A stretch of DNA of 64,000 nucleotides from Nitrospira sp. (lineage in GTDB: Bacteria > Nitrospirota > Nitrospiria > Nitrospirales > Nitrospiraceae), in assembly GCA_030692565.1 (NCBI GenBank), contig JAUYAO010000004.1, forward strand, positions 17,413-81,412, in the 5' to 3' direction. Within the stretch, counting starts at the first letter, position 1; each line of letters begins with the position of its first letter. The position numbers and the translations under genes are program-made. The notes beneath the pieces are model-generated. The model worked only from the letters and a program-made list of their open reading frames with translations. It did no database searches and was not told the origin of the DNA. Of this stretch, positions 30,445 to 59,928 are shown one piece after another.

Positions 30445-30642
30445 ATTTCTCTTTCATCGCATCAACAACCCTCAACTTCTTGGCGTCTCTTCTGCTGGTT
30501 GCGCGGAGCGCTGCTCGGGCGCTCTGCCGCGGTCTTCCCCGTGATGCTCTGTAAGAACTCCGCCATCGGAAAGACATACGCGCACAAGGGGATGCTGAAG
30601 ACAAGCACCCCGCTTCTTATTCACCTTACAGGGAGGATTGCG

Positions 30643-35463: not shown

Positions 35464-35572
35464 AAATGTGTAAGAATATTCCCGCTTGTCCGACTCCCTC
35501 TATAAGGCCTGCAAGCGGTCTGCTCACACAGGTCTGCGGAAGAACGACATCAGAGGATCGAGCAACAAGGAC

Positions 35573-35863
35573 ATGATCACAGAATTGATCGCACGCCTGA
35601 CCCCTCCCTGCACCGACATCACGCGGCTTGTATCAGAGTCCATGGACCGGCCGATGGCGCTGTCCACCAGACTTGCGCTCCGGTTTCATCTCCTGATCTG
35701 TGCCGGCTGTGCCGCCTACAAGCGCCAGTTAGAACAGATTCGACAGACCTTGCGTCGATCAGCGGATGCCGCTCCCGGCGAATCGAACGGATCGACGGGT
35801 TCCTCTCCCGAAACGACCGCACGGTTGAAAGACGCCTTTCGGCAGCAGGCGAAGAAGCCCTGA
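35573..35863 (+). CDS. small zf-HC2 (putative anti-sigma) protein, orphan
   Basis: C-x23..-H-x3-C-x2-C pattern (CTDITRLVSE ... HLLICAGCAAY). Paralogous to 53209..53475. Confidence 0.55.
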   Translation: MITELIARLTPPCTDITRLVSESMDRPMALSTRLALRFHLLICAGCAAYKRQLEQIRQTLRRSADAAPGESNGSTGSSPETTARLKDAFRQQAKKP

Positions 35864-36411: not shown

Positions 36412-36464
36412 TGTAAGAACGTTGAGCCGTGCTCGACTGATCGGCAGGGAAGCGGAGGGAGCCC

Positions 36465-36926: not shown

Positions 36927-37184
36927 ATGCTTTGTATGATCTGTTGCCATATCATGCTCAGCTGCAGCAGCCAGACGGTGGAGGACGAGAGGGGCTCGTT
37001 ACTCGTCACCCGGTGGAGCTGTCCCGGTTGCGGACGGTGCGAGGAAGAAATCTGGGTCAGTCGCCACTACCAGGGCGCCCGGCCTCGCCGGCTTCGCTAC
37101 GCGGTCAACGCCGCAGTGGCCCTTACCATTCCGACGCGCTCGCGCGCCGGACGAATATCTGTGTCCCATGCGTCAGTGGGCTGA
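36927..37184 (+). CDS. small 4-Cys zinc-ribbon-like protein (paralog B)
   Basis: AAGGAG RBS. MLCMIC...RWSCPGCGRC has the same C-x2-C ... W-x-C-x-G-C layout as paralog A. The 3' end overlaps the MIP start. Confidence 0.5.
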   Translation: MLCMICCHIMLSCSSQTVEDERGSLLVTRWSCPGCGRCEEEIWVSRHYQGARPRRLRYAVNAAVALTIPTRSRAGRISVSHASVG

Positions 37185-38001
37185 CCGCGCGCGCGGTCAT
37201 TGGCCGGAGTATCTGATGGAAGCGGCCGGTCTCGGCCTCTTCATGATCTCCGCCGCGGTGGTCACGACTCTGCTGGAGTATCCCGGCTCTCCGTTGCACG
37301 CCTCGCTGCCCGATCCTGCCACGCGCCGTGCGCTCACCGGCGTGGCGATGGGGCTCACCGCCATCGGTATCATCTATTCACCGTGGGGCAAACAATCCGG
37401 CGCCCATTTGAATCCGGCGGTGACGCTCACGTTTTATCGATTGGGCAAGATCGACGGGGTGGATGCAGTCGGGTATGTACTCGCGCAAGCAGCCGGCGGG
37501 CTCATCGGACTCCTTGCGGCTAGGGCCGGAATCGGCATGGCCCTCGCACATCCGGCGGTCAACTATGTAGTAACCGTGCCGGGCGAAGCGGGAATCGCCA
37601 CGGCTTTTCTGGCAGAGGCCGCCATCTCCTTTGGTCTGATGCTGACCGTCTTGTTCCTGTCGAACCACAGAACGCTTGCGCCGGTCACCGGTCTTGTAGC
37701 CGGTGGGCTTGTCGCGGCCTATATCGGAATCGAGGCGCCACTTTCCGGTATGAGCATGAATCCGGCCAGGACGCTGGCCTCGGCGATTCCGGCTCATGTG
37801 TGGACGGCATTCTGGCTGTATCTCACGGCTCCGATGGGGGGGATGTTGCTTGCGGCTGAATTCTATCTGCGTGCGAAGGGGCTCAGGCAGATCTATTGCG
37901 CGAAACTGCATCATCATAACCGGGCGCGCTGCATTTTCCGCTGCCGCTATGGTGAGCTGCTCGAGCGGGGAACAGCGAGGCCGTTGCCTGCTGATCGATA
38001 A
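37168..38001 (+). CDS. MIP-family channel (aquaporin/glycerol-facilitator-like) with Cys/His-rich C-terminal tail
   Basis: Two NPA boxes (HLNPAVT, MNPART) and six TM segments. Tail: CAKLHHHNRARCIFRC. Confidence 0.85.
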   Translation: MRQWADRARGHWPEYLMEAAGLGLFMISAAVVTTLLEYPGSPLHASLPDPATRRALTGVAMGLTAIGIIYSPWGKQSGAHLNPAVTLTFYRLGKIDGVDAVGYVLAQAAGGLIGLLAARAGIGMALAHPAVNYVVTVPGEAGIATAFLAEAAISFGLMLTVLFLSNHRTLAPVTGLVAGGLVAAYIGIEAPLSGMSMNPARTLASAIPAHVWTAFWLYLTAPMGGMLLAAEFYLRAKGLRQIYCAKLHHHNRARCIFRCRYGELLERGTARPLPADR

Positions 38002-48229: not shown

Positions 48230-49969
48230 GTGCCAATGATGCCGCCTTCTGATCGCGAACCTGCGCCTCCTCAGGATCGCATCGCCGACGAGGCGGCGGA
48301 AACCGGCGTCATCCTCCGCAGAATCCTCGAGGGTGTGGAAGCGAAAGTCGGCGAGCAGTTTTTCCCCTCGCTCGTGCAACAGCTGGCCATGGCGATGGGC
48401 GTCGACTACGCCTATGTCTCGGAACGCACCGAAGATGGGTGCCGGTTCAGATCCAAAGCAGCCTGGGGCAAAGGCCACCTGCTGCCGCCATTCGACGTCC
48501 CTGCTCAGGGTCCCTGCGAAACGGTCTTGACGCGCAAGTGCGTCCATCACCCCGATCAATTACGCGAACTCTATCCGCATGTGCAGTTGATTCAGGACAT
48601 CGGGGTCAACAGCTATTGCGGAGTCCCGGTTGTGGATTCCCATGACCGGGTCGTCGGGCATTTGGCGATCATGGATTCGAAACCGATGCTCGACCCTGTC
48701 CGGGCGACCTCAATCCTCGGCATCTTTGCGATACGGGCTGCCGCGGAATTCGAGCGGCTGCGCTTCGAAGCGGCCATGCGCAAGAGCGACCTGACCTTGA
48801 GAAAGATCGACGAAGGCACGGCAGGAGCGACGGGGGCGGCGTTCTTCCCATCCTTGGTAAAGAGCCTTGCTGAAGCACTGCAGACGAAGTATGCCTTCGT
48901 CTCTAAGTTCGTCGAGGGCCACCGTGCCCGGGTGCGCACGCTGGCCTTTTGGAAGGGCGACGGGTTTCTCGATAACTTCGAATACGATCTGCCCCATACG
49001 CCCTGCGAGCGCGTCTTAGCGGGAGAGGTCTGTCTCTTCCCGGAGAAGGTGCAGGATCTGTTTCCGGATCATCGGGACGATCTCGCCGCGTTGGAGATGG
49101 AGAGCTATCTCGCAATTCCCGTGACGGATCGCGCCGGCAACGTGATGGGCCATTTGGCAGTGATGGATACCAAGCCGATGCACGACGATCCGCGTGTCCT
49201 CTCGGTCTTCAAGATCTTCGGCGTCCGGGCCGGCGCCGAGTTGGAGCGGGAGCGCATGGATGCGCAGCTGAAAGACAACGAAGAGCGGCTGCGCGATCTG
49301 TTCGACGAGGCGCCGATCGCCTATGTTTATGAAGGGGTCGATTCCAAGCTGCTTCGGGTCAACCGCACGGCGATGAAGTCCCTGGGCATCACGGCCGATC
49401 AGGTTCCGGGCCTATACGGGAGGGACTTTGTTCCGGATACTCCCGATGCGCAGCGGCGCTTGAAAGAAGCCTTTGCTTCCGTCGGGAAGGGGATCGACAC
49501 GAGCGGGGTGGTATTGGAACTGCGGCGTAAAGACAACGGGAAACCGCTTTGGATGAGATGGTGGTCGAGGCCGGACCCGAGCGGCACCTACACCCGCACG
49601 ATGTTCCTCGACATTACCGAGCAGGTGTTGATGGAGCAGGAAAAAGCCCGTCTGGAAGCGCAGGCTGTTTATCTGCAGGAAGAAATCAAAGGCGCGCATA
49701 ACTTTGAAGAACTGATCGGGGGGTCGACGTCACTAAAAAAAGTGCTCAAGAATGTAGAACGGGTAGCGCCGACCGATTCGACCGTCCTCATCACCGGCGA
49801 AACCGGCACCGGTAAAGAATTGATTGCCCGCGCGATTCACAACCTGAGTCCGCGCAAGGGCCGGGCGCTCGTCAAAGTCAATTGTGCGGCCATTCCGGCA
49901 GGCTTGATCGAAAGTGAGCTGTTCGGCCACGAGAAAGGCGCCTTCACCGGTGCCTTGACCAAGAAGATG
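48230..49969 (+). pseudogene. sigma-54-dependent activator, 5' fragment (GAF-GAF-PAS-AAA+ through GAFTGA), interrupted by IS
   Basis: Walker A (GETGTGKE) and ELFGHEKGAFTGALTKKM. The reading frame then runs into IS sequence. Confidence 0.9.
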
Positions 49970-50034
49970 AGAGGTGGCTCCGGATGGCTGGACAGCCTAT
50001 TCCCGTTCTTAAGTGGCGCCTCGCGGGTTGCTGA

Positions 50035-50864
50035 CTACGCGGCCGTGAGCCGTGTCGTCAGATTTTCAGAGTACGCCAGGTCAGGCGTCTTGCCGTCAAG
50101 CGCCTGATGCGGTCTGGTCTGGTTGTAGAACGTTAGATAGCGCTCCAAGCCCTGGTGCGCAGCCCCGACGGTCTCGTAGGCGTGCAGATAGACCTCCTCG
50201 TATTTGATGCTTTTCCAGAGTCGTTCCACGAATACGTTGTCTCGCCAACACCCTTTCCCGTCCATGCTGATCTGGATGCCGTGATGCGTCAGGAGTCCCG
50301 TGAACTCCTGGCTGGTGAACTGGCACCCTTGATCGGTATTGAAGATCTCCGGCGGGCCATAGTGGGCCAGGGCGGCCTGCACTGCGTCCAGACAGAAATC
50401 GGTCGTGAGTGTGTTGGAGAGCCGCCACGCCAACACCCGGCGACTGGCCCAGTCCAGGACGGCAAACAAGTACACGAAGCCACGCGCCATCGGGATATAG
50501 GTAATATCGGCGGCCCAGACGTGATTAGGACGCGAGATCTTTAGGTCCCGCAAGGATAGGGATAGACCCGATGGGCCGGATGTCGGCGGCTAAGATGCGG
50601 CTTCCGATACAAGGCCTCAAGCCCCATGCGGCGCATCAGGGTGGCCACATGTCGCCGCCCAACGGCCTGGCCCTCTTGCCGTAAGAGATCGCGCAGCATG
50701 CGCGCCCCGGCAAACGGATACTGCAGATGCAACTCGTCGATCCGCCGCATCAGTGCCAGCGCCGTCTCTGATACCGGCGTCGGGTGGTAGTAGGCAGTCG
50801 AGCGGGCCAGTTTCAGCAACTGGCATTGCCGCCGCACAGGCAGTCGATGGGTGCGATCGATCAT
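50035..50864 (-). pseudogene. IS3-family transposase OrfB (DDE), extra frame break near 50553-50556
   Basis: ...HRVYPY|(L)LRDLKISRPNHVWAADITY... is split between two frames. The DNA reads tat ccc tat cc ttg cgg, so one base is missing relative to YPYLLR. The DDE core is DITY ... NTDQGCQFTS ... E. Confidence 0.75.
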
Positions 50865-51160
50865 GGCTTTGCGCTCCGCAAGCCCGCCTTGGTGAGCGCC
50901 CCGGCTAAAAAATCATTCTCCAGGGCCAGTTGGCCAATCTTGGCATGGAGGGTCTTGAGATCGGGCGTGTCCGCCGTTGGTTTGGCGCCACCAAACACGT
51001 CCGCCGCTCGCGCCAGTAGTTGTTGTTTCCATTCGGTGATCTGGGTGGGATGGACGCGAAACTGCTCGGCCAGTTCCGCCAGCGTCTTGTCGCCTTTGAC
51101 CGCGGCCAACGCGACCTGCGCCTTGAAGGTCGCTCCATGATTCCGTCTCGTTCGCTTCAT
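50861..51160 (-). CDS. IS3-family transposase OrfA (HTH)
   Basis: MKRTRRNHGATFKAQVALAAVKGDKTLAELAEQF... GAGGAG RBS. The slippery heptamer T TTT TTA (plus-strand coordinates 50906-50912) leads in the -1 frame into orfB. Confidence 0.85.
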   Translation of the reverse strand: MKRTRRNHGATFKAQVALAAVKGDKTLAELAEQFRVHPTQITEWKQQLLARAADVFGGAKPTADTPDLKTLHAKIGQLALENDFLAGALTKAGLRSAKP

Positions 51161-51251
51161 CGCCTCGCTCCTCTGGTTTGCCACCACCCGGTGGCGTTGG
51201 TGAAGCAAGGCTACCACTTATCACACTGTCCGAATTTCCGGAGCCCCCTCT

Positions 51252-51926
51252 ATGGGTCGCTTCGAGGTGGCTGATAAAGGCCCGATTTTTCTCGACGAGA
51301 TCGGCGAACTGCCGCTGGATCTGCAATCGAAACTCCTCCGGGTGCTTCAGGAAGGCGAGTTCGAACGGGTCGGCGGGACGCAGACCTTCAAGGTGAATGT
51401 GCGGGTGATCGCCGCAACCAACCGCAATCTCGAGCAGCTTTCGAAGAGCGGCCAGTATCGTCCCGATCTCTATTACCGCCTGAACGTCTTTCCGATTCAC
51501 CTGCCGGCTCTGCGTGAACGCGAAGGCGATATTCCCCTGCTTGTGCAGTACTTCGTGCGTAAGTTTGCCACGAATTTTGGCAAGAAGATCACGAAGATTT
51601 CGGAGCGTATGATGTCCGCACTGCAGCGCTATCAGTGGCCGGGCAACATTCGCGAACTGGAGCATGTGATTGAGCGTGCGGTGATCCTGAGCGAAGGACC
51701 GGAATTGGAATCGATCGAGTGGCTATCGCCGTCCAGCGGCAAGGCCGGATCTGCCAAGCCTCTTACGCTCGAGGAAGCGGAGCGGCAGCACATCATCGAT
51801 ATGTTGGAACAAACCAACTGGCGCGTGAGCGGCCCCAAGGGCGCTGCCGCCATCCTCAGCCTGAAGCCCACGACCCTCGAAGCACGGATGAAAAAGCTCG
51901 GCATTGAGCGCCAGGCGAAGTCGTAA
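51252..51926 (+). pseudogene. sigma-54-dependent activator, 3' fragment (rest of AAA+ plus Fis-type HTH)
   Basis: (M)GRFEVADKGPIFLDEIGELP (Walker B), RVIAATNRNL, WPGNIRELEH, and the C-terminal HTH AAAILSLKPTTLEARMKKLGI. Confidence 0.9.
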
Positions 51927-52101
51927 TTCCTTCTCTCCTGTTTTTCCCGTTATTCCAAAGAAATTTTCCCAACATATCGTGACGGTCCCAATATTTGGGG
52001 AATCATTTCGGTCCGATCTCACGACGGTTTTGCCCGTCAGGGTCCGCCTTCTCATTGGTTCATCAATCACTTAACGCATCCCACGACATCGCTCTGCGCA
52101 G

Positions 52102-52117
52102 TGGCACTGCTGTTGCT
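52102..52117 (+). promoter_or_regulatory. sigma-54 (-24/-12) promoter
   Basis: TGGCACtgctgTTGCT matches the consensus with canonical GG-N10-GC spacing. It lies 45 nt upstream of the ATG at 52161, inside a 235-bp non-coding gap. Confidence 0.75.
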
Positions 52118-52160
52118 GAATAGTCGGGCAGTGCGCGACAGCAAAGGAGAACATGAAGCG

Positions 52161-52430
52161 ATGTTGAAGATCACCAAAGTTCAAGAAAGCGGCCGGGATG
52201 TCCTTCTCAAGCTGGAAGGAAAGATTACGGAGCAGTGGGCCGCCCTCCTCGACGGCGAGTGCCGTTCGTTCCTTCGCCAGAAAAAGGCGGTCTATCTGGA
52301 TTGTTCGCATGTGGACTTTATCGATCAACGGGGAGTGGAGGTGGTGAAGAACTTCCCTCCCGCGCAAGTCACCCTCATGAGCGCTCCCGGATTTGTGACG
52401 GAGTTGCTGGAGATTGGAGGCCAGTCATGA
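52161..52430 (+). CDS. STAS-domain protein (anti-sigma-antagonist-like)
   Basis: LLKLEGKI ... AVYLDCSHVDFIDQRGVEVV is a STAS-like layout. AAGGAGA RBS. Confidence 0.65.
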   Translation: MLKITKVQESGRDVLLKLEGKITEQWAALLDGECRSFLRQKKAVYLDCSHVDFIDQRGVEVVKNFPPAQVTLMSAPGFVTELLEIGGQS

Positions 52431-53155
52431 ATTCAGTCGTCACCACGTATCAGGAATCGGGGGGGCAGGTCTCGACGGTCGGAGCATCGGCCACCACGTC
52501 GCCGGGCTCTTCGCTCTCGCAAGAGGAGCGGTCGCGGATCGGCCGTCTTCGCACCGGAGACGAGGGGGCGTTTGACGAACTGGTCAACAAGCACCACAGC
52601 GGGCTGATTCGCATGGCGCTGGGACATGTGGCGGACCGGGAAGTGGCTGAGGAAGTGGTGCAGGATACCTGGATGGCCGTAATCGAAGGGCTGGCCCGTT
52701 TTGAGGGGCGGTCCTCGCTGCGGACCTGGATCTTCGGGATTCTGATTCACAAGGCTAAGGATCGCGGTGTGCGGGAGAAGCGGCACGCGACATTTTCGGA
52801 TTTCGAATCCTACAACGATGACAATGATGAAGCCGTCGATCCCTCTCGTTTCCATCAGAGTGGCGAATGGGCCGGCCACTGGGCCTTCCCTCCCCAACCC
52901 TGGGACGACCAGACGCCGGAAAAATTGCTGGCCAGCCAGCAAGCGGTGCGCGCCATGAACAAGGCGATTGAATCCTTGCCCAAAACGCTCAAGGAGGTCT
53001 TGGTCCTCCGCGACGTGGAAGGGGTGGACGCCAAGGAAGCGTGCGAGATCCTGAAGATCACAGAAACCAATCTCTATGTTCGGCTTCATCGGGCACGGGA
53101 ACGGGTGCGAGTGGCGGTAGAAAGCTTTCTGGGAGGAAGGCCTTTGGATCTGTAA
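52427..53155 (+). CDS. ECF sigma factor with N-terminal extension and long sigma2-sigma4 linker
   Basis: The start overlaps the STAS stop (ATGA), with GGAGG upstream. Sigma-2 is VVQDTWMAVIEGLARFEGRSSLRTWIFGILIHKAKD. Sigma-4 is LVLRDVEGVDAKEACEILKITETNLYVRLHRARERV. Confidence 0.85.
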   Translation: MNSVVTTYQESGGQVSTVGASATTSPGSSLSQEERSRIGRLRTGDEGAFDELVNKHHSGLIRMALGHVADREVAEEVVQDTWMAVIEGLARFEGRSSLRTWIFGILIHKAKDRGVREKRHATFSDFESYNDDNDEAVDPSRFHQSGEWAGHWAFPPQPWDDQTPEKLLASQQAVRAMNKAIESLPKTLKEVLVLRDVEGVDAKEACEILKITETNLYVRLHRARERVRVAVESFLGGRPLDL

Positions 53156-53208
53156 GAAGGGGGTCGGCAGGAGGACCAACCGGGAGTACATCACCGGAGG
53201 CTCCCTGC

Positions 53209-53475
53209 ATGAAAGACCATCCGTCACAATGGATCCAGAGCGGACTCAGCTGCCGTGATGTCACGGAGCGGGTCTCTGAGTATACGGAAGACCGTCTCCC
53301 GATCCTGACCAAGGTCCGCGTCGGCCTGCATCTCGCTTCCTGCGCCAACTGTCGCGCGTATCTGAGGCAAATGGTCTTGATCTGCGCGACGGCCGCGCTG
53401 CTTCCCAAGCGGTCCCCGTCACCGATTCATCGACTCCAGTTGCGGCGGCAGTTTGCCGCACACTATTCCCGCTAG
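53209..53475 (+). CDS. small zf-HC2 putative anti-sigma factor (no TM segment)
   Basis: GGAGG RBS. CRDVTERVSE ... HLASCANCRAY. 88 aa. Confidence 0.65.
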   Translation: MKDHPSQWIQSGLSCRDVTERVSEYTEDRLPILTKVRVGLHLASCANCRAYLRQMVLICATAALLPKRSPSPIHRLQLRRQFAAHYSR

Positions 53476-53524
53476 GACTTCCGCTCGTGCTGTAAGGGAA
53501 CGGCCTCAAAGCCGACTGATCGCC

Positions 53525-54199
53525 ATGACCACACTTGTGACAATGACCATGTTGAACTCGGAGCAGCTCAGGCTGGAGCAGGCGGCCACGCTGGCGGAGC
53601 CGGAGCGACCGTACGGACTATTGGCCAAGAGTCTCTTTCTTGTCATGGACCTGCTCTACGGCCGCGCTAGAAGTTGGAGCAAATTCAAAGTTCTTGAAGT
53701 AATCGCCCGCGTGCCCTATCAAGCCTGGGAACATGTGGCCTACATCGCGATCACGCAGCAATACCAGCATGAGGATTTTGCCCGGCGGGTGTTCGACCGC
53801 GTGAAAGAGAGCCGTCATCAGCAGGACAACGAACAATGGCATCTCCTCATTCTGGAGGAATGGATCCATCGCGCTCGAATCGAAGAGCGCTTCCTGTTGC
53901 ACCGGCTGGTGCCGCAAGTCATCGCCTTCGTCTATTACCAGATCAGTTGGCTGCTCTATGTGATGAAGCCCGAATGGAGTCATCGCCTGAATGTCGATTT
54001 CGAGACCCATGCGGAACATGAGTACATGCGCTTCGCCCGCGAGCATCCGGAGTTGGAACAGACGCCTTTTGAGAGCGCCTTTAAGAAAGACTTTGGCGAC
54101 TTCGCCACGATGGCCGACGTTATACGCCAGATCGGGTATGACGAACGCGTCCACAAGAACCAAAGCATGCATAAACTCGGCATGGCGCGCTTTACCTAG
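53525..54199 (+). CDS. alternative oxidase / PTOX-like di-iron carboxylate protein
   Basis: All four AOX iron-ligand motifs are recognisable in order: LEVIARVPY (LET-like), NEQWHL (NERMHL-like), DFETHAEHEY (LEEEA-like) and YDERVHKN (RADEAHHR-like). Confidence 0.65.
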   Translation: MTTLVTMTMLNSEQLRLEQAATLAEPERPYGLLAKSLFLVMDLLYGRARSWSKFKVLEVIARVPYQAWEHVAYIAITQQYQHEDFARRVFDRVKESRHQQDNEQWHLLILEEWIHRARIEERFLLHRLVPQVIAFVYYQISWLLYVMKPEWSHRLNVDFETHAEHEYMRFAREHPELEQTPFESAFKKDFGDFATMADVIRQIGYDERVHKNQSMHKLGMARFT

Positions 54200-54212
54200 C
54201 AAGGGAGACATC

Positions 54213-55321
54213 ATGAAAGCTGTTGCCGTCATACCGGGTCAAGCCAGCTCCATCCATCTTGCCGATTTGCCGAAGCCGTCGGTTCATGAGATCCCGAACG
54301 GACGCGGGGTGCTGGTTCAAGTATTACGCGTGGGGGTCGACGGAACCGACAAGGAAATCAACGCCGCGGAATACGGCCAGCGCCTCCCGGTTTTGAGTTT
54401 CTGGTCATCGGTCATGAATGCTTCGGGCGTGTACTGGAAGTCGGCGCGAACGTGACGGAGTTCATGCCGGGCGACTATGTTGTTCCGACCGTGCGGCGCC
54501 CAGGCGGCAGCTTCTACGATCAGATCGGCCAGTACGATATGACGCTGGACGACACGTACTATGAGCGCGGGATCAATCTGCGCCATGGGTATCTGACGGA
54601 ATTCTTTGTCGACGGTCCGGAATATCTCGTGAAGATCCCCAAAGGCCTCAAGGATGTGGCGGTGTTGCTGGAGCCGGCTTCGATCATCGAGAAGGGCATT
54701 ATCCAGGCGTATGAAGCGCAGCGCCGTTTCAAGATATGGCGGCCCAGGAAGGCGGCGGTGCTCGGCGCCGGGACGGTCGGTCTGCTGGCGGCTCTGTCGC
54801 TGAAGATGAGGGGCTTGGACGTTGTCAGCTTCGGCAAGCAGAGCGGGCCATCCCGCAACCTCGACCTGCTGGCGCAGTTGGGCGTGCGGTATATCTCGGC
54901 CGAGGATGTGTCGATCAGAGAAGCCGCAAAGCAGTATGGTCCCTTCGATCTGATGTTCGAAGCCACCGGCTACTCACCGGTCGCCTTCGAGGCCATGGAG
55001 GCCTTGGGTAAGAATGGCGTCCTCATTTTGGCCAGCGTGACCGGCGGCGACCGTGAACACGCGATACCCGCGGACAAGATCAATCTGGATTTCGTACTTG
55101 GGAATAAGCTCGTCGTCGGCACGGTCAACGCCAATCGGGAGTACTTCGAAGCGGGCGTCTACGACTTCGCGCGCGCGGAGCTGGAATTTCCCGGCTGGTT
55201 GTCGAAACTGCTGACCCATCCGGTCGTGGGCTTGGAGAATTACCGGGACATGATGCACCTGCTGACGACCGAGCCCAGCGCGATCAAAGTGTTTGTGAAT
55301 GTGGCGTACGACTGGCGATGA
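54213..55321 (+). pseudogene. MDR-family glucose 1-dehydrogenase-like zinc dehydrogenase, frame broken near 54378-54382
   Basis: MKAVAVIPG ... VGVDGTDKEINAAEYGQ is in one frame. (A)PPGFEFLVIGHECFGRVLEVGANVTEFMPGDYVVPTVRRP ... GAGTVG continues in the frame one base back. Confidence 0.75.
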
Positions 55322-55410
55322 TTCTTCTCTCAACTCTTTTGCCGTAAGGAATTCAGGGCTCGTGCGACTGAGGAGCAGAACACTTCTCCTCCCCGAGCAA
55401 GGAGCCTTGT

Positions 55411-56319
55411 ATGAACCTCCAATCTTCGACCAGTCCCGCCGTTCTCGCGGAACCCAGATCCCGTGAAGTCGAGCCGGTCGGTATAACTCCGTCCACCTCT
55501 GCGGTGCCGGGTCGGGCGATCCATACCGAACGGGTGTATCGCCACCGGCTGCCGGTCCGCATCGGTCACTGGCTGAATGTGGTCTGTCTCTTTATTCTGA
55601 TCATGAGCGGCCTCCAGATCTTCAATGCGCATCCGGCGCTTTATTGGGGGGATCGCTCGGATCGCGACAAGCCGCTTCTCTCCATGCAGGCCGTGAAGAA
55701 TGAGAGCGGGGAGATCCGCGGGCTGACAACGGTCTTAGGTCACGCCTTCGATACGACCGGCGTGCTGGGCTACTCCAATGGCATGAGGCAGGGCTTCCCC
55801 GGATGGGCGACGGTCCCGAGCGCCCGGTGGCTCGCGATGGGGCGGCAATGGCATCTCTTCTTCGCCTGGTTCTTTGTGATCAACGGACTGCTCTTTGCAA
55901 CCTATGCCTTCATCAGCCGACATTTCAAGAAAGATCTTCTGCCGACCGGCCAGGATCTGAAACAGATCCCGCAAGCGGTGAAAGACCATCTCGTGTTGCG
56001 TCACCCGAAAGGCGAGGAAGCGAAGCGCTACAACGTGTTGCAGAAGTTGGCCTACGTCAGCGTGATCTTCGGCCTCGCGCCACTGATCGTGCTGACCGGC
56101 CTGACGATGTCGCCCACGATCGATGCGGCTTTCCCCTGGCTGTTGAGCATCTTCGGCGGTCGCCAGGCGGCGCGCACGATTCATTTCATCGCCTGCTTCT
56201 CGTTCGTCGGATTTGTCGTAATCCATGTCTCGCAAGTCATTCTCACAGGATTCTTCAACAACATCCGGTCGATGATCACCGGATACTTCGTTGTATCGCA
56301 TGAAGGAGTGAAGCCATGA
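55411..56319 (+). CDS. membrane di-heme cytochrome b (PF01292-like, YedZ/PhsC-type)
   Basis: RIGHWLNVVCLFILIMSGLQIF plus further TM helices with conserved His (ARTIHFIACF). Confidence 0.7.
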   Translation: MNLQSSTSPAVLAEPRSREVEPVGITPSTSAVPGRAIHTERVYRHRLPVRIGHWLNVVCLFILIMSGLQIFNAHPALYWGDRSDRDKPLLSMQAVKNESGEIRGLTTVLGHAFDTTGVLGYSNGMRQGFPGWATVPSARWLAMGRQWHLFFAWFFVINGLLFATYAFISRHFKKDLLPTGQDLKQIPQAVKDHLVLRHPKGEEAKRYNVLQKLAYVSVIFGLAPLIVLTGLTMSPTIDAAFPWLLSIFGGRQAARTIHFIACFSFVGFVVIHVSQVILTGFFNNIRSMITGYFVVSHEGVKP

Positions 56320-57086
56320 AGCCTGAACGAGCTTTGGAGCGACGAGGATTTTTGAAGGGCACAGTCGGAGCCGCCGGTCTTCTCGCACTCGGCGGTTGCG
56401 ACAACCTGACGCAGAGCAACTGGTTTCCATCGATCTTGCAGAAGGCGGAACGTTTGACCGAAGGCATCCAGCGAGCGATTGCTCCGGCCAGTGCCATGGC
56501 GAAAGAGTATGGGGAGGCTGACATCTCACGGGTGTTCCCGGCAAACGGGAACACGGATCCAGGAACGGAAGAGTATGCCGAGATGGTGAAGAAGGATTTT
56601 GCCGACTGGGATGTGCTGATCGACGGGCTGGTGAAGACGCCGACGAGGTTTTCACTGGCCGCAATCAGGGAAATGCCGGCGCGGACCCAGATCACCCGGC
56701 ACGATTGTGTCGAGGGCTGGAGTGCCATCGGGAAGTGGACGGGCGTGCCGCTCGGCGACTTGCTGCGCAAAGTGGAGCCATTGCCGACGGCGAAGTATGC
56801 GGTCTTTCATTGTGCTGATGCCGACGACGAGGGTGTCCCGTACTACGAGAGTATGGCCGTCGCCGATTGCTTTCACCCCCAGACGATCCTGGCCTATGAC
56901 CTGAACGGCCGACCGCTCGACGTACCGCACGGCGCGCCGCTTCGTCTGCGCTTCGAACGCCAGCTCGGCTACAAGCAGGCGAAGTATGTGGAGCACATCG
57001 AACTGGTGGAATCCCTCGCCGATATTGGAGGAGGAAGGGGCGGCTATTGGGAAGACCAAGGATATGAGTGGTATGCGGGAATATAG
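56316..57086 (+). CDS. periplasmic molybdopterin-dependent oxidoreductase (YedY/MsrP-like)
   Basis: Tat-like RRGFLKGTVGAAGLLALGGC. Oxidoreductase molybdopterin-binding core (HDCVEGWSAIGKWTGVPL ... GAPLRL ... KYV). ATGA overlap with the cytochrome b gene. Confidence 0.75.
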   Translation: MKPERALERRGFLKGTVGAAGLLALGGCDNLTQSNWFPSILQKAERLTEGIQRAIAPASAMAKEYGEADISRVFPANGNTDPGTEEYAEMVKKDFADWDVLIDGLVKTPTRFSLAAIREMPARTQITRHDCVEGWSAIGKWTGVPLGDLLRKVEPLPTAKYAVFHCADADDEGVPYYESMAVADCFHPQTILAYDLNGRPLDVPHGAPLRLRFERQLGYKQAKYVEHIELVESLADIGGGRGGYWEDQGYEWYAGI

Positions 57087-57102
57087 CCAGCGAGAGTGAC
57101 CC

Positions 57103-58311
57103 GTGAAACATATAACCTGCTTCATATTCTCTTTCGGCGCGTTACTCCTCGCCGGCTGTCTCTCGCCGATTGCCATGCATCGGGCGGTGATCGAGTACGA
57201 CCGAACGGTGAGTTATGTCGAAGCCGATTTGCTGCTGCTCAACATCGCGCGTGCCCGCTACCATCGGCCGGTCCATTTCACGGCGGTCTCGAGCGTGGCG
57301 GCGACATTCGACTTCCGTACGAGCGCAGGCATTCGCGGCGGATTCGGTCCGGTGACGGATTCAGCCGACCGTCCGATCAATCTCGAGTACAGCGCCAGCG
57401 TGGCGGAGAATCCGACGATCACGATCGGGCCGATTACGGGCGAAGAGTTTACGAAGCGTGTCTTGCGTCCGCTGGATGAGGATAAGTTCGAGTTTCTCGT
57501 ACGGCAGGGCTATGACATCAACATGGTGCTACGCCTCATGGCGCGCGGCATTGCCATCGACGATGTCCGTGGGCCTCTCGTCTTGTTCAGCCAGCCGTCC
57601 CAGGCAGAGGGCTATCTGGAGTTTCGCCGCCGGCTGTTGCCCCTCGCGGGCTTGGATGCGGAGCGCAAGTTGTTCGTCGGTCCGATCCTCTTCGAAGAGA
57701 GCCAGACGGTGCGAACGAATCGCCCGCCGAACCCTGATGAAGTCGTGGCGGCGCTGGAAAAGGGGTTCCGATGGGAAGGCGACAGCGAGGGCAAGGTCCA
57801 TACAGTGCGTCGTAAGGCCGTCGGCCGGTTGTTGATCGCCAATTACGATCCGGCCAGGCTGTCGAACGACGAGCGGCGGGCTCTCCATGAGGAGGCGCAA
57901 CGAGTGCCGTCCGATTCGGTGTTGGTGGACCTCAGGCCGGGCCATCCCGGGGGCGACTATCCCTTGCACGGTTCGATTCTGCTTCGCAGCATGAACGCGA
58001 TTATCGGATTTGTGGCGCGCAGTATCGAGGAGGAACCGGAGATGATGGTGTCGCCCGATCCGCGGACCCAGCTTGTGGTGCGCAATCCGGCCAGGACACT
58101 GGAGATCGAAGAATCGGTCTCAAAGCCGGGCGACTATGAATTCTCCGTACCGTTTGACGGCCGCTACTACTCGATCCGCAAGTACCCCGTAAGCCAGGGA
58201 ATGGTTCCCAGTTGGAATCAGGAAGCATTCGCAGTGCTCTCGAATTTGTTTCAGATGACCGTCACCGATCTGACGAAGTATCCGACGCCGGCGATTGCGA
58301 TTGCCAAGTAG
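57103..58311 (+). CDS. hypothetical lipoprotein
   Basis: GTG start. Lipobox LLLAGC. No recognised domain. Confidence 0.5.
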   Translation: MKHITCFIFSFGALLLAGCLSPIAMHRAVIEYDRTVSYVEADLLLLNIARARYHRPVHFTAVSSVAATFDFRTSAGIRGGFGPVTDSADRPINLEYSASVAENPTITIGPITGEEFTKRVLRPLDEDKFEFLVRQGYDINMVLRLMARGIAIDDVRGPLVLFSQPSQAEGYLEFRRRLLPLAGLDAERKLFVGPILFEESQTVRTNRPPNPDEVVAALEKGFRWEGDSEGKVHTVRRKAVGRLLIANYDPARLSNDERRALHEEAQRVPSDSVLVDLRPGHPGGDYPLHGSILLRSMNAIIGFVARSIEEEPEMMVSPDPRTQLVVRNPARTLEIEESVSKPGDYEFSVPFDGRYYSIRKYPVSQGMVPSWNQEAFAVLSNLFQMTVTDLTKYPTPAIAIAK

Positions 58312-58401
58312 GGACGGGCTTCGTCGCAGACGGTGCCTGTCCCGATTGCTCGCGTACATCCAGCCGCGAATCGACGAACGTAATTGGAGAAGGAGGGCGC
58401 C

Positions 58402-58920
58402 ATGCTTGATCGCATCATGACCGGTACGCTCGTCATCCTTGCGGGGCTGTTGCTGCCCTGGGCCGTCGTCAATGCGGGAGCCGGCATGAAGGCGCCGGAC
58501 ATCACCAATTCCACCTGGCTGAACAGCGAACCCCTACGGCTGGCGGACCTGAGGGGGAAAGTAGTCATGGTCGAGTTCTGGACCTTCGGCTGTTACAACT
58601 GCCGGAACGTCGAGCCCTATGTGAAGCAATGGCATCAGAAGTATGCCGATCAGGGTTTCGTCATCATCGGCGTTCATTCGCCTGAGTTCTCGCACGAGCG
58701 CGAAATCGACAACGTGCGGCGCTATATCAAGGATCACGATATTCGTTTCGCTGTGCCGATCGATAACGACTTTTCGACGTGGAATGCCTACGGCAACCGC
58801 TATTGGCCGGCGATGTATCTCATCGACAAGCGCGGCGTGATCCGCCATGTGCGTGTCGGCGAAGGCGGCTACCAGGACACAGAAGCGAAGATTCAATCGC
58901 TGCTTGCTGAGCCGTCCTAA
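58402..58920 (+). CDS. thioredoxin-fold redoxin (TlpA/DipZ C-terminal-like), exported
   Basis: AGGAGG RBS. FWTFGCYNCRNVEPY carries the CxxC. An N-terminal signal/anchor is present. Confidence 0.8.
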   Translation: MLDRIMTGTLVILAGLLLPWAVVNAGAGMKAPDITNSTWLNSEPLRLADLRGKVVMVEFWTFGCYNCRNVEPYVKQWHQKYADQGFVIIGVHSPEFSHEREIDNVRRYIKDHDIRFAVPIDNDFSTWNAYGNRYWPAMYLIDKRGVIRHVRVGEGGYQDTEAKIQSLLAEPS

Positions 58921-58929
58921 GGGGGCAGG

Positions 58930-59928
58930 ATGCCACAGCTGTCACGGCGACGATTTCTGCAGACGACCGGGGGACTGTTGTTGGCGGCAGCCCTGCCCTC
59001 GTCGGCCGCAGCCGGAGTGCTGAACCGCCTCTTCGGTCAGCCCGAGCCGAAGCTGACGAAGTCGATCACGCCCAACGATGAATTCTACGTCACTTCCTAC
59101 CGCAGTCCTCCGACGATTCGCCTCAACGAGTGGTCCTTGGTGATCAACGGCCTGGTCGAACGGCCCATGACTCTGACGTACGATCAATTGCTGGCCAAGC
59201 CGACAATCTCGCAGATCGTGACGCTCGAATGCGTTGGGAATACGGTGGCGGGGGAATTTATCAGCACGGCCGAGTGGGAAGGGGTCTCGCTTCGCGCGTT
59301 GCTGGAGGAAGCCGGTGTCAGTGCAAGAGCCTATGATGTCGTCTTCCGTGCGGCCGATGGTTATTCAGACGGGATTCGTCTCGATCGTGCGGTGGCGGGC
59401 GATGTGTTGATCGCGCACAGGATGAACGGAGTGCCGCTTCCTCTAGGCCACGGATTTCCTGCCCGCATGATTGTGCCCGGCCATTACGGCATGAAGAGCG
59501 TGCAATGGCTGACGGCGATCGACGTCGTGGCCGAGGATTACAAGGGCTACTACGCGCAGAAGGGCTGGACCGACGAGGCGATCATCAAGACCACCTCACG
59601 CATCGATCTGCCAGGACATGGCACAACCCTTACAGGGGGGCGTCATAGGGTGGAAGGCCTTGCCTTCGCCGGTGTTCGAGGCATCAGGCGGGTCGAGATC
59701 AGCACAGACGGCGGGGAACATTGGATGCCCGCGATGCTCGATGTCCCGCTTTCGAATGCTGCATGGCGATTCTGGCGTTACGACTGGGCGGTTCTGAATC
59801 CCGGCCGGCATACGCTCCTTGTCCGCGCCATAGATGGTACCGGGAAGGTTCAATCATCCGTCGAACAGGACCCGGCTCCGGATGGGGCAGCCGGGCTGCA
59901 CGAGATCACGGTGACAGTCGAACCCTGA
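58930..59928 (+). CDS. sulfite-oxidase-family molybdoenzyme (Tat-exported)
   Basis: SRRRFLQTTGG twin-arginine signal. LECVGN (Mo-ligand Cys region), HRMNGVPLPLGHGFPARMIVPG, and a C-terminal Ig-like dimerisation region. Confidence 0.8.
   Translation: MPQLSRRRFLQTTGGLLLAAALPSSAAAGVLNRLFGQPEPKLTKSITPNDEFYVTSYRSPPTIRLNEWSLVINGLVERPMTLTYDQLLAKPTISQIVTLECVGNTVAGEFISTAEWEGVSLRALLEEAGVSARAYDVVFRAADGYSDGIRLDRAVAGDVLIAHRMNGVPLPLGHGFPARMIVPGHYGMKSVQWLTAIDVVAEDYKGYYAQKGWTDEAIIKTTSRIDLPGHGTTLTGGRHRVEGLAFAGVRGIRRVEISTDGGEHWMPAMLDVPLSNAAWRFWRYDWAVLNPGRHTLLVRAIDGTGKVQSSVEQDPAPDGAAGLHEITVTVEP

Follow-up and report, generated by a model that had tools for sequence, protein, structure and literature searches.

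A probable sigma-54 promoter, conserved across Nitrospira, upstream of a STAS/ECF sigma/anti-sigma operon whose candidate activator gene is interrupted by an IS element

Upstream of a Nitrospira operon that encodes a STAS-domain protein, an ECF sigma factor and a zinc-binding anti-sigma factor, we identified a motif at positions 52102–52117 (+ strand) that is, with a probability we put at roughly 0.8, the sigma-54 promoter of that operon, set in the classical enhancer layout and shared genus-wide, with the first tier of the cascade that it heads most likely dead in the strain analyzed. All coordinates refer to the window, by which we mean the whole 64-kb stretch of DNA that was analyzed. In the mechanism we propose, dimers of an activator with a GAF-GAF-PAS-AAA+-HTH architecture would bind two dyads centered at about −134 and −153, an IHF-like site at about −60 would bend the DNA between this UAS and the promoter, and RNA polymerase with sigma-54 would remain closed at −24/−12 until an activator hexamer remodels it. 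The newly made ECF sigma factor would be held by the zinc anti-sigma factor and, once released, would probably read promoters of the form GTAAGRA-N14-CGAC. A motif over the ECF stop codon would drive the anti-sigma gene and so provide negative feedback, and other ECF-type promoters would serve a cytochrome b/MsrP-like/thiol-oxidoreductase cluster together with genes of an oxidative-damage theme. In the window strain, an insertion sequence (IS) splits the ATPase domain of the activator between the GAFTGA loop and Walker B. The sequences themselves show that the motif is conserved, that the UAS is conserved and phased, that synteny is kept, that the activator gene is disrupted and how the ECF-type motif is distributed; the pairing of each protein with its site, the inducing signal and the silencing of the operon are features that we infer.

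The first-pass annotation of this DNA had described a consensus sigma-54 match with canonical GG/GC spacing, and that description holds: positions 52102–52117 (+) read TGGCACTGCTGTTGCT, an exact match to TGGCAC-N5-TTGCW in which the GG (52103–52104) and GC (52115–52116) dinucleotides are exactly 10 bp apart, and the transcription start is predicted near 52128. When both strands of the 64-kb window were searched, TGGCACtgctgTTGCT was the sole exact match, and shuffled sequences gave a mean of 0.05 exact matches, with at least one match in 4 of 100 shuffles. With two mismatches allowed, 12 matches were found in the window versus 28 expected, i.e. below chance. Only the exact match stands out from the background, and on composition alone its significance is modest (~p = 0.04). 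The motif starts 176 nt downstream of the end of the stop codon of the enhancer-binding protein (EBP) gene at 51926, as had been reported, while the other reported distances were off by one or two nucleotides: the gap between the EBP and STAS genes (51927–52160) is 234 bp rather than 235 bp, and the end of the motif is 43 nt rather than 45 nt from the STAS ATG at 52161. A ribosome-binding site, AAGGAG, is located at 52144–52149, ahead of this ATG. A GTG at 52101, which as the STAS start would render the motif coding, was excluded based on frame-breaking indels in the orthologs and on the conservation of the ribosome-binding site and the ATG. Two further candidates for the leader were rejected, namely a second sigma-54 or ECF promoter (the spacing and −12 element were unfit, and no ECF-type motif was found upstream of STAS) and a conserved 5' leader RNA structure (RNAalifold returned no pairs for 20 leaders).

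Taken alone, the match in a single window is modest, and it is the comparative data that are decisive for the motif. A one-genome-per-species scan gave 38 Nitrospira loci, including that of the complete genome of N. moscoviensis, in which the ECF sigma factor is 65–87% identical to the one in the window; the scan also gave one unrelated actinomycete locus. The sequence TGGCA(C/T)-N5-TTGCT was identified in 33 loci at an unchanged distance from the sigma gene and, in right-aligned regions, GGCA(C/T)-N5-TTGCT was present in every locus with upstream sequence (37/37), three of which carry CGGCA or GGGCA instead of TGGCA. Across these 37 loci the 5-nt spacer and the flanks were free to vary. Information content was calculated for 38 unique sequences anchored on the GG, and the means per position were 2.0 bits for TTGCT, which is invariant, 1.76 bits for TGGCAY and 0.74 bits for the 5-nt spacer, with 0.23–0.34 bits per position in the flanking intergenic DNA. 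Conserved −24 and −12 elements on either side of a free spacer are the signature expected of a promoter under purifying selection. The distance from the GG to the STAS ATG ranged from 45 to 59 nt across the loci and, because its steps are not multiples of three, the promoter block is not coding. Phylogenetic footprinting therefore supports the earlier proposal that the motif is a sigma-54 promoter.

An alternative is that the TGGCA-N5-TTGCT block is bound by a different protein or resembles a promoter only by chance; in its favor are the single exact match in 64 kb, which reaches only ~p = 0.04 by shuffling, and the RpoN box, which was not found in the 64-kb window or in the 39 fetched loci. 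We consider this explanation highly improbable, given that the GG and GC are invariant at a fixed spacing with a free spacer and no dyad symmetry, that both the orientation and the distance to the start codon are correct, and that an EBP gene is adjacent, with a dyad UAS at a distance that preserves helical phase. The genome of the window strain is presumed, on indirect evidence, to carry rpoN. The block that follows the −12 element (52118–52135), comprising GAATAG and then GGCATCACG around the predicted +1, was kept in many loci and is probably start-site or initial-transcribed-region context.

Alignment with MAFFT of the 330 nt upstream of STAS revealed two tandem palindromes of the form TCCCAA-N4-TTGGGA, a block conserved far more strongly than the motifs pointed out in the first-pass annotation. 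In the window, dyad 1 (TCCCAACATATCGTGA, 51967–51982) has a degenerate right half, and an identical or near-identical dyad 1 occurs in several other loci; dyad 2 (TCCCAATATTTGGGGA, 51986–52001) has one mismatch to TCCCAA-N4-TTGGGA and its center is at about −134 from the predicted start. Both dyads were found in 36 loci, with a start-to-start distance of 19 bp in 35 and of 18 bp in L035, and a search of the window and of ~400 kb of sequence from the loci found no other copy with 0–1 mismatch. We know of no described EBP site that the palindrome matches. In most loci the proximal dyad is centered 106.5–110.5 bp from the GG; in six the distance is 118.5–119.5 bp. These two spacing classes, about one helical turn apart, fit the face-of-helix dependence that a looping activator would show. 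The first-pass annotation, which defined no clean dyad, had placed a possible UAS within 51975–52050, which was roughly the right region, although the elements it named were the wrong ones, the conserved elements being the two dyads at 51967–52001. The sequence GACGG-N6-CCGTC (52023–52038) was rejected as a UAS based on its being kept only in the closest clade, and there not as a dyad.

Closer to the promoter, a TCAA-N4-TTR core (TCAATCACTTA) is located at 52063–52073 (+), approximately −65 to −55 from the predicted start. The core is at −40/−39 from the GG in 28 of the 38 sequences, against a chance expectation of ~0.4% per locus. The full IHF consensus, WATCAANNNNTTR, which is that of E. coli and may not be that of Nitrospira, was matched in only 2 of 38, and we designate the site at 52063–52073 as IHF-like, and no more.

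The activator gene upstream of the promoter had been reported as disrupted, and our analysis of its domains and of the inserted element confirmed this. Its 5' part (48230–49969, +) encodes GAF-GAF-PAS and positions 1–86 of the AAA+ domain (Sigma54_activat), an assignment based on Pfam, on orthologs and on the GAFTGA loop at 49937, which is the single GAFTGA match in the window; the ORF in which Pfam detected these domains (GAF-GAF-PAS and PF00158 positions 1–86) spans 48230–50107. The 3' part (51252–51926, +), assigned from Pfam and the restored ORF, encodes AAA+ positions 87–168, the AAA lid (PF25601) and a Fis-type HTH_8 (PF02954). Between the two lies an IS3-family element of 1282 bp (49970–51251, − strand), recognized from its sequence, its Pfam HTH_Tnp_1 and rve domains and its imperfect terminal inverted repeats, AGAGGTGGCTCCGGA and AGAGGGGGCTCCGGA, and bordered by a 3-bp target duplication, ATG, at 49967–49969 and 51252–51254. 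The IS splits Sigma54_activat at model position 86/87 and interrupts the EBP reading frame. When the IS and one ATG copy were removed in silico, an uninterrupted 803-aa ORF was restored, which reads ...GAFTGALTKKMGRFEVADKG... and is 61–87% identical, over nearly its full length, to the orthologs upstream of STAS. Since the IS separates Walker A and GAFTGA from Walker B and the arginine finger, the EBP, judged by AAA+ biology, presumably cannot be a functional ATPase.

As is usual for the IS3 family, the element is ~1.3 kb long, has an HTH orfA (51217–50861, −) followed by a DDE (rve) orfB, and shows imperfect inverted repeats and a 3-bp duplication; it differs from the family in that its ends are not the usual TG...CA and its orfB is apparently split. 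The integrase core is encoded in two overlapping frames (50864–50541 and 50553–50035, −) without an obvious slippery site, and this copy of the IS may itself be defective. No further copies of the IS were found in the window or in the loci. In an independent Logan assembly (run SRR13727538), a contig was 100% identical to window positions 51083–59155, and the Logan contig (L040) terminates inside the IS, which is what one would expect were the genome to hold more than one copy of the IS.

An EBP ortholog is encoded upstream of STAS, and co-oriented with it, in 34 loci. This synteny, with the conserved UAS, strongly suggests that the neighboring EBP binds the dyads and is in keeping with the earlier designation of the adjacent EBP as the putative cognate activator. 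It is important to note that adjacency of EBP and promoter is not obligatory, since the EBP gene and the UAS are more than 1 kb apart in nine loci (L002, L013, L014, L018, L019, L024, L032, L034 and L035) and one locus, L012 (1711–5740), has kept the UAS dyads and the promoter below genes that are unrelated to the EBP. In the genome that carries L012, the activator gene must thus have another location. In L002, the space is filled by a + strand gene for a 446-aa protein (coiled-coil, signal peptide), and the UAS stays with the promoter. Such loci, together with the several EBPs encoded in Nitrospira genomes (PMC12542776, PMC6606698), leave room for a genuine sigma-54 promoter that is driven by a different EBP encoded elsewhere, with the operon perhaps still inducible in the window strain. 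We regard that arrangement as quite unlikely in view of the same-orientation ortholog upstream in 34 loci, the absence of the dyad elsewhere in ~400 kb of flanking sequence and the lack of a second EBP gene in the window (one GAFTGA match). The EBP of L002 (1084–5478) was also observed to carry a third GAF domain.

With the neighboring EBP as the activator, the first tier is most likely dead in the window strain because sigma-54 promoters have almost no activator-independent activity, and it is reasonable to infer from the sequence that the operon has been switched off by the IS. No sigma-70-like promoter was found in the gap between the EBP and STAS genes. A search of 51850–52250, from the EBP 3' fragment to STAS, found no intrinsic terminator on the + strand, and low read-through expression despite the IS is therefore possible. 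It could accordingly be argued that the promoter and cascade are real and the operon is nevertheless unsilenced, with transcription that reads through from the EBP gene, or runs outward from the IS, supplying STAS, ECF sigma and anti-sigma at a basal level and with control being exerted mainly post-translationally via the anti-sigma factor; the missing terminator, the intact STAS, sigma and anti-sigma ORFs of the window strain and the ECF-type promoter motif that the anti-sigma gene has of its own would all agree with this. We think it rather unlikely, as the gap offers no sigma-70-like promoter, the transposase genes of the IS (minus strand) face away from the operon, and a frameshifted gene further down the operon fits disuse, although this last point is weak evidence. 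The frameshifted gene (54213–55321, +) encodes a glucose-dehydrogenase-like Zn-dehydrogenase and is a probable pseudogene: a 1-nt deletion after 54379 (54379/54380), where the window has GGCCA-GCGCC versus GGCCAGGCGCC in five orthologs, splits it into two frames. The sequence past the deletion still reads as a conserved protein and the Logan contig shows the same split. All other ORFs of the operon are intact. The dehydrogenase gene may have become a pseudogene only recently, within an operon deprived of its activator.

The first gene of the operon (52161–52430, +) encodes an 89-aa STAS-domain protein (Pfam PF01740, 28.8 bits versus a cutoff of 22.6). Its stop is overlapped by the start of the ECF sigma gene (52427–53155, +; 242 aa) in an ATGA, through which STAS is translationally coupled to ECF in most loci. 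The sigma factor was identified by Pfam (Sigma70_r2 and r4_2) and by PDB and NCBIfam comparisons; it is RpoE/AlgU-like and reaches no NCBIfam equivalog cutoff. The third gene (53209–53475, +) encodes an 88-aa zinc-binding anti-sigma factor with an H-x3-C-x2-C motif (Pfam zf-HC2; NCBIfam NF052368, 50.2 bits versus a cutoff of 50), such that a sigma factor with regions 2 and 4 only adjoins a zf-HC2 protein, the arrangement of an ECF/ZAS pair. The translation of the anti-sigma gene contains C15-x25-H41-x3-C45-x2-C48, a spacing that we take to be the same as in RsrA. In the STAS orthologs, the position aligned to the DSAG of TM1442 is D-Q/A/G/V/E/T-R/M/K-G, with no serine at the SpoIIAA phospho-site, and the STAS proteins encoded in L001–L038 carry two conserved cysteines (in DGECR and LDC[S/A]). 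No gene for a HATPase/kinase-type anti-sigma factor was found in the operon. Judging from these sequences, the STAS/ECF operon is not a classical SpoIIAA/RsbV partner-switching module. The anti-sigma gene is followed by a gene for an alternative-oxidase-like di-iron protein (53525–54199, +; Pfam AOX) and by the dehydrogenase gene. Genes for a b-type cytochrome (55411–56319) and an MsrP-like molybdoenzyme (56316–57086), which together span 55411–57086 (+), are candidate second-tier targets, and further downstream are genes for a 402-aa protein and then a ResA-like thiol-disulfide oxidoreductase.

A two-tier cascade, in which a sigma-54 promoter feeds an ECF sigma factor with a regulon of its own, had been suggested from the window sequence, and it gains support from a conserved ECF-type motif inside and downstream of the operon. 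In the window and the Nitrospira loci, GTAAG(A/G)A-N14-nGAC has 75 occurrences on the + strand and a single one on the − strand. Of 37 loci, 35 have the motif at or just past the ECF stop, before the anti-sigma gene, and of 26 loci, 25 have it before the cytochrome b gene, there often just past a terminator-like hairpin. In the 330 nt upstream of STAS it occurred in 0 of 37 loci, i.e. no autoregulatory ECF promoter of this kind was found in that region. The window copies at these two places are GTAAGAA-N14-GGAC at 53152–53176 (+), which overlaps the ECF TAA stop upstream of the anti-sigma gene, and GTAAGGA-N14-CGAC at 55344–55368 (+), upstream of the cytochrome b gene. When the base preceding GAC was restricted to C, T or A, which excludes the GGAC copy at 53152, the motif had four matches in the window versus 0.125 expected. 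This narrower search gave three more copies, GTAAGAA-N14-(A/C)GAC at 30551–30575, 35470–35494 and 36413–36437 (all +), which precede a secreted-protein gene with two HbpS-like and two SGL-lactonase genes behind it, a second zf-HC2 gene (35573–35863) and the region before a MIP channel gene (37168–38001). These copies may point to additional genes of the ECF regulon. No other ECF sigma gene was detected in the window, and the association of gene and motif suggests that the window's own ECF sigma factor reads GTAAGRA-N14-nGAC. Most simply, the sigma gene would be expressed only from the sigma-54 promoter, and the ECF sigma factor would then drive the anti-sigma gene and the genes of the oxidative-damage theme.

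Sigma-54 control of an ECF sigma gene has a precedent in hrpL, and this locus is an addition to the regulatory map of the genus, not a new mechanism. In Pseudomonas syringae, HrpR/HrpS and sigma-54 direct expression of the ECF sigma factor HrpL, which in turn controls the hrp-box regulon, and the system includes a UAS, IHF and negative feedback (PMC5263251). Both systems have an ECF sigma gene on a sigma-54 promoter with a UAS and an IHF or IHF-like site, a regulon with a bipartite motif and built-in negative feedback. They differ in that one GAF-GAF-PAS EBP stands here where P. syringae has the HrpR/HrpS pair; that the sigma gene here is co-transcribed with STAS and followed by a zinc anti-sigma gene, which HrpL lacks; that feedback here is proposed to act via an ECF-dependent anti-sigma promoter, versus promoter occlusion there; and that the regulon here resembles one for the repair of oxidative damage and not one for type III secretion. 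HrpL was absent among the best 25 NCBIfam matches listed for the ECF sigma factor.

A second point of comparison is sigH-rshA of Corynebacterium glutamicum, in which the anti-sigma gene has an additional promoter for the cognate sigma factor and the sigma gene is not autoregulated, an arrangement that was interpreted as a rapid shut-off loop (PMC3489674). There, as here, the sigma gene is not self-driven, the downstream zinc anti-sigma gene has an ECF promoter of its own (a candidate in our case) and the theme is thiol/oxidative stress; unlike the operon described here, with its probable sigma-54 promoter, sigH is on housekeeping promoters, and it has no STAS partner. The layout at the window promoter also resembles that of NtrC/NifA-type promoters (glnAp2, nifH) in its −24 GG and −12 GC, its tandem dyad UAS ~100–150 bp upstream, its possible bend site in between and its nearby activator gene, but the sensory module is GAF-GAF-PAS here and a receiver domain there. 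The SigH/SigR promoter motif, GGAA-N18-GTT, differs from GTAAGRA-N14-CGAC, and to our knowledge the Actinobacteria are without sigma-54. For Nitrospira, a number of regulators that depend on sigma-54 have been reported, chiefly beside nxr genes (PMC7522533, PMC6606698, PMC12542776). A full-text literature search for ECF, STAS and sigma-54 returned PMC5263251 and an unrelated Agrobacterium transcriptome study, neither of which describes this combination or the Nitrospira locus. Members of Nitrospira oxidize nitrite in soils, waters and treatment plants, and nearly everything said about how they regulate their genes is inferred. By comparative genomics alone, this locus gives a complete, testable cis-regulatory model (dyad, sigma-54 core promoter, candidate ECF motif and a small regulon), and the window strain, whose cascade has probably lost its top tier to a mobile element, provides a natural comparison.

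We speculate, and hold it as a possible if doubtful extension of the sigma-54 cascade, that the locus is a genus-wide stress module that works as a two-key switch: the EBP and sigma-54 would license transcription, and a thiol-reactive ZAS together with a non-phosphorylatable cysteine STAS protein would set the activity of the ECF sigma factor. An ECF promoter within the stop codon of the sigma gene would drive the anti-sigma gene and so produce a pulse-type response. The STAS protein would then be a type of partner not described for ECF/ZAS pairs, and the switch would control periplasmic protein-oxidation repair (MsrP-like), the alternative oxidase and the HbpS-like proteins. If this were the case, the IS would have turned the window strain into a natural knockout of the entire module.

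In several loci, among them L016, L023 and L033 (at ~7076 in these three), L002, L011 and L018, the ECF sigma gene is followed by a tandem pair of zf-HC2 anti-sigma genes. In L016 and L023 each of the two anti-sigma genes is preceded by its own GTAAGRA-N14-nGAC, and in L033 a strict match is located only before the second.
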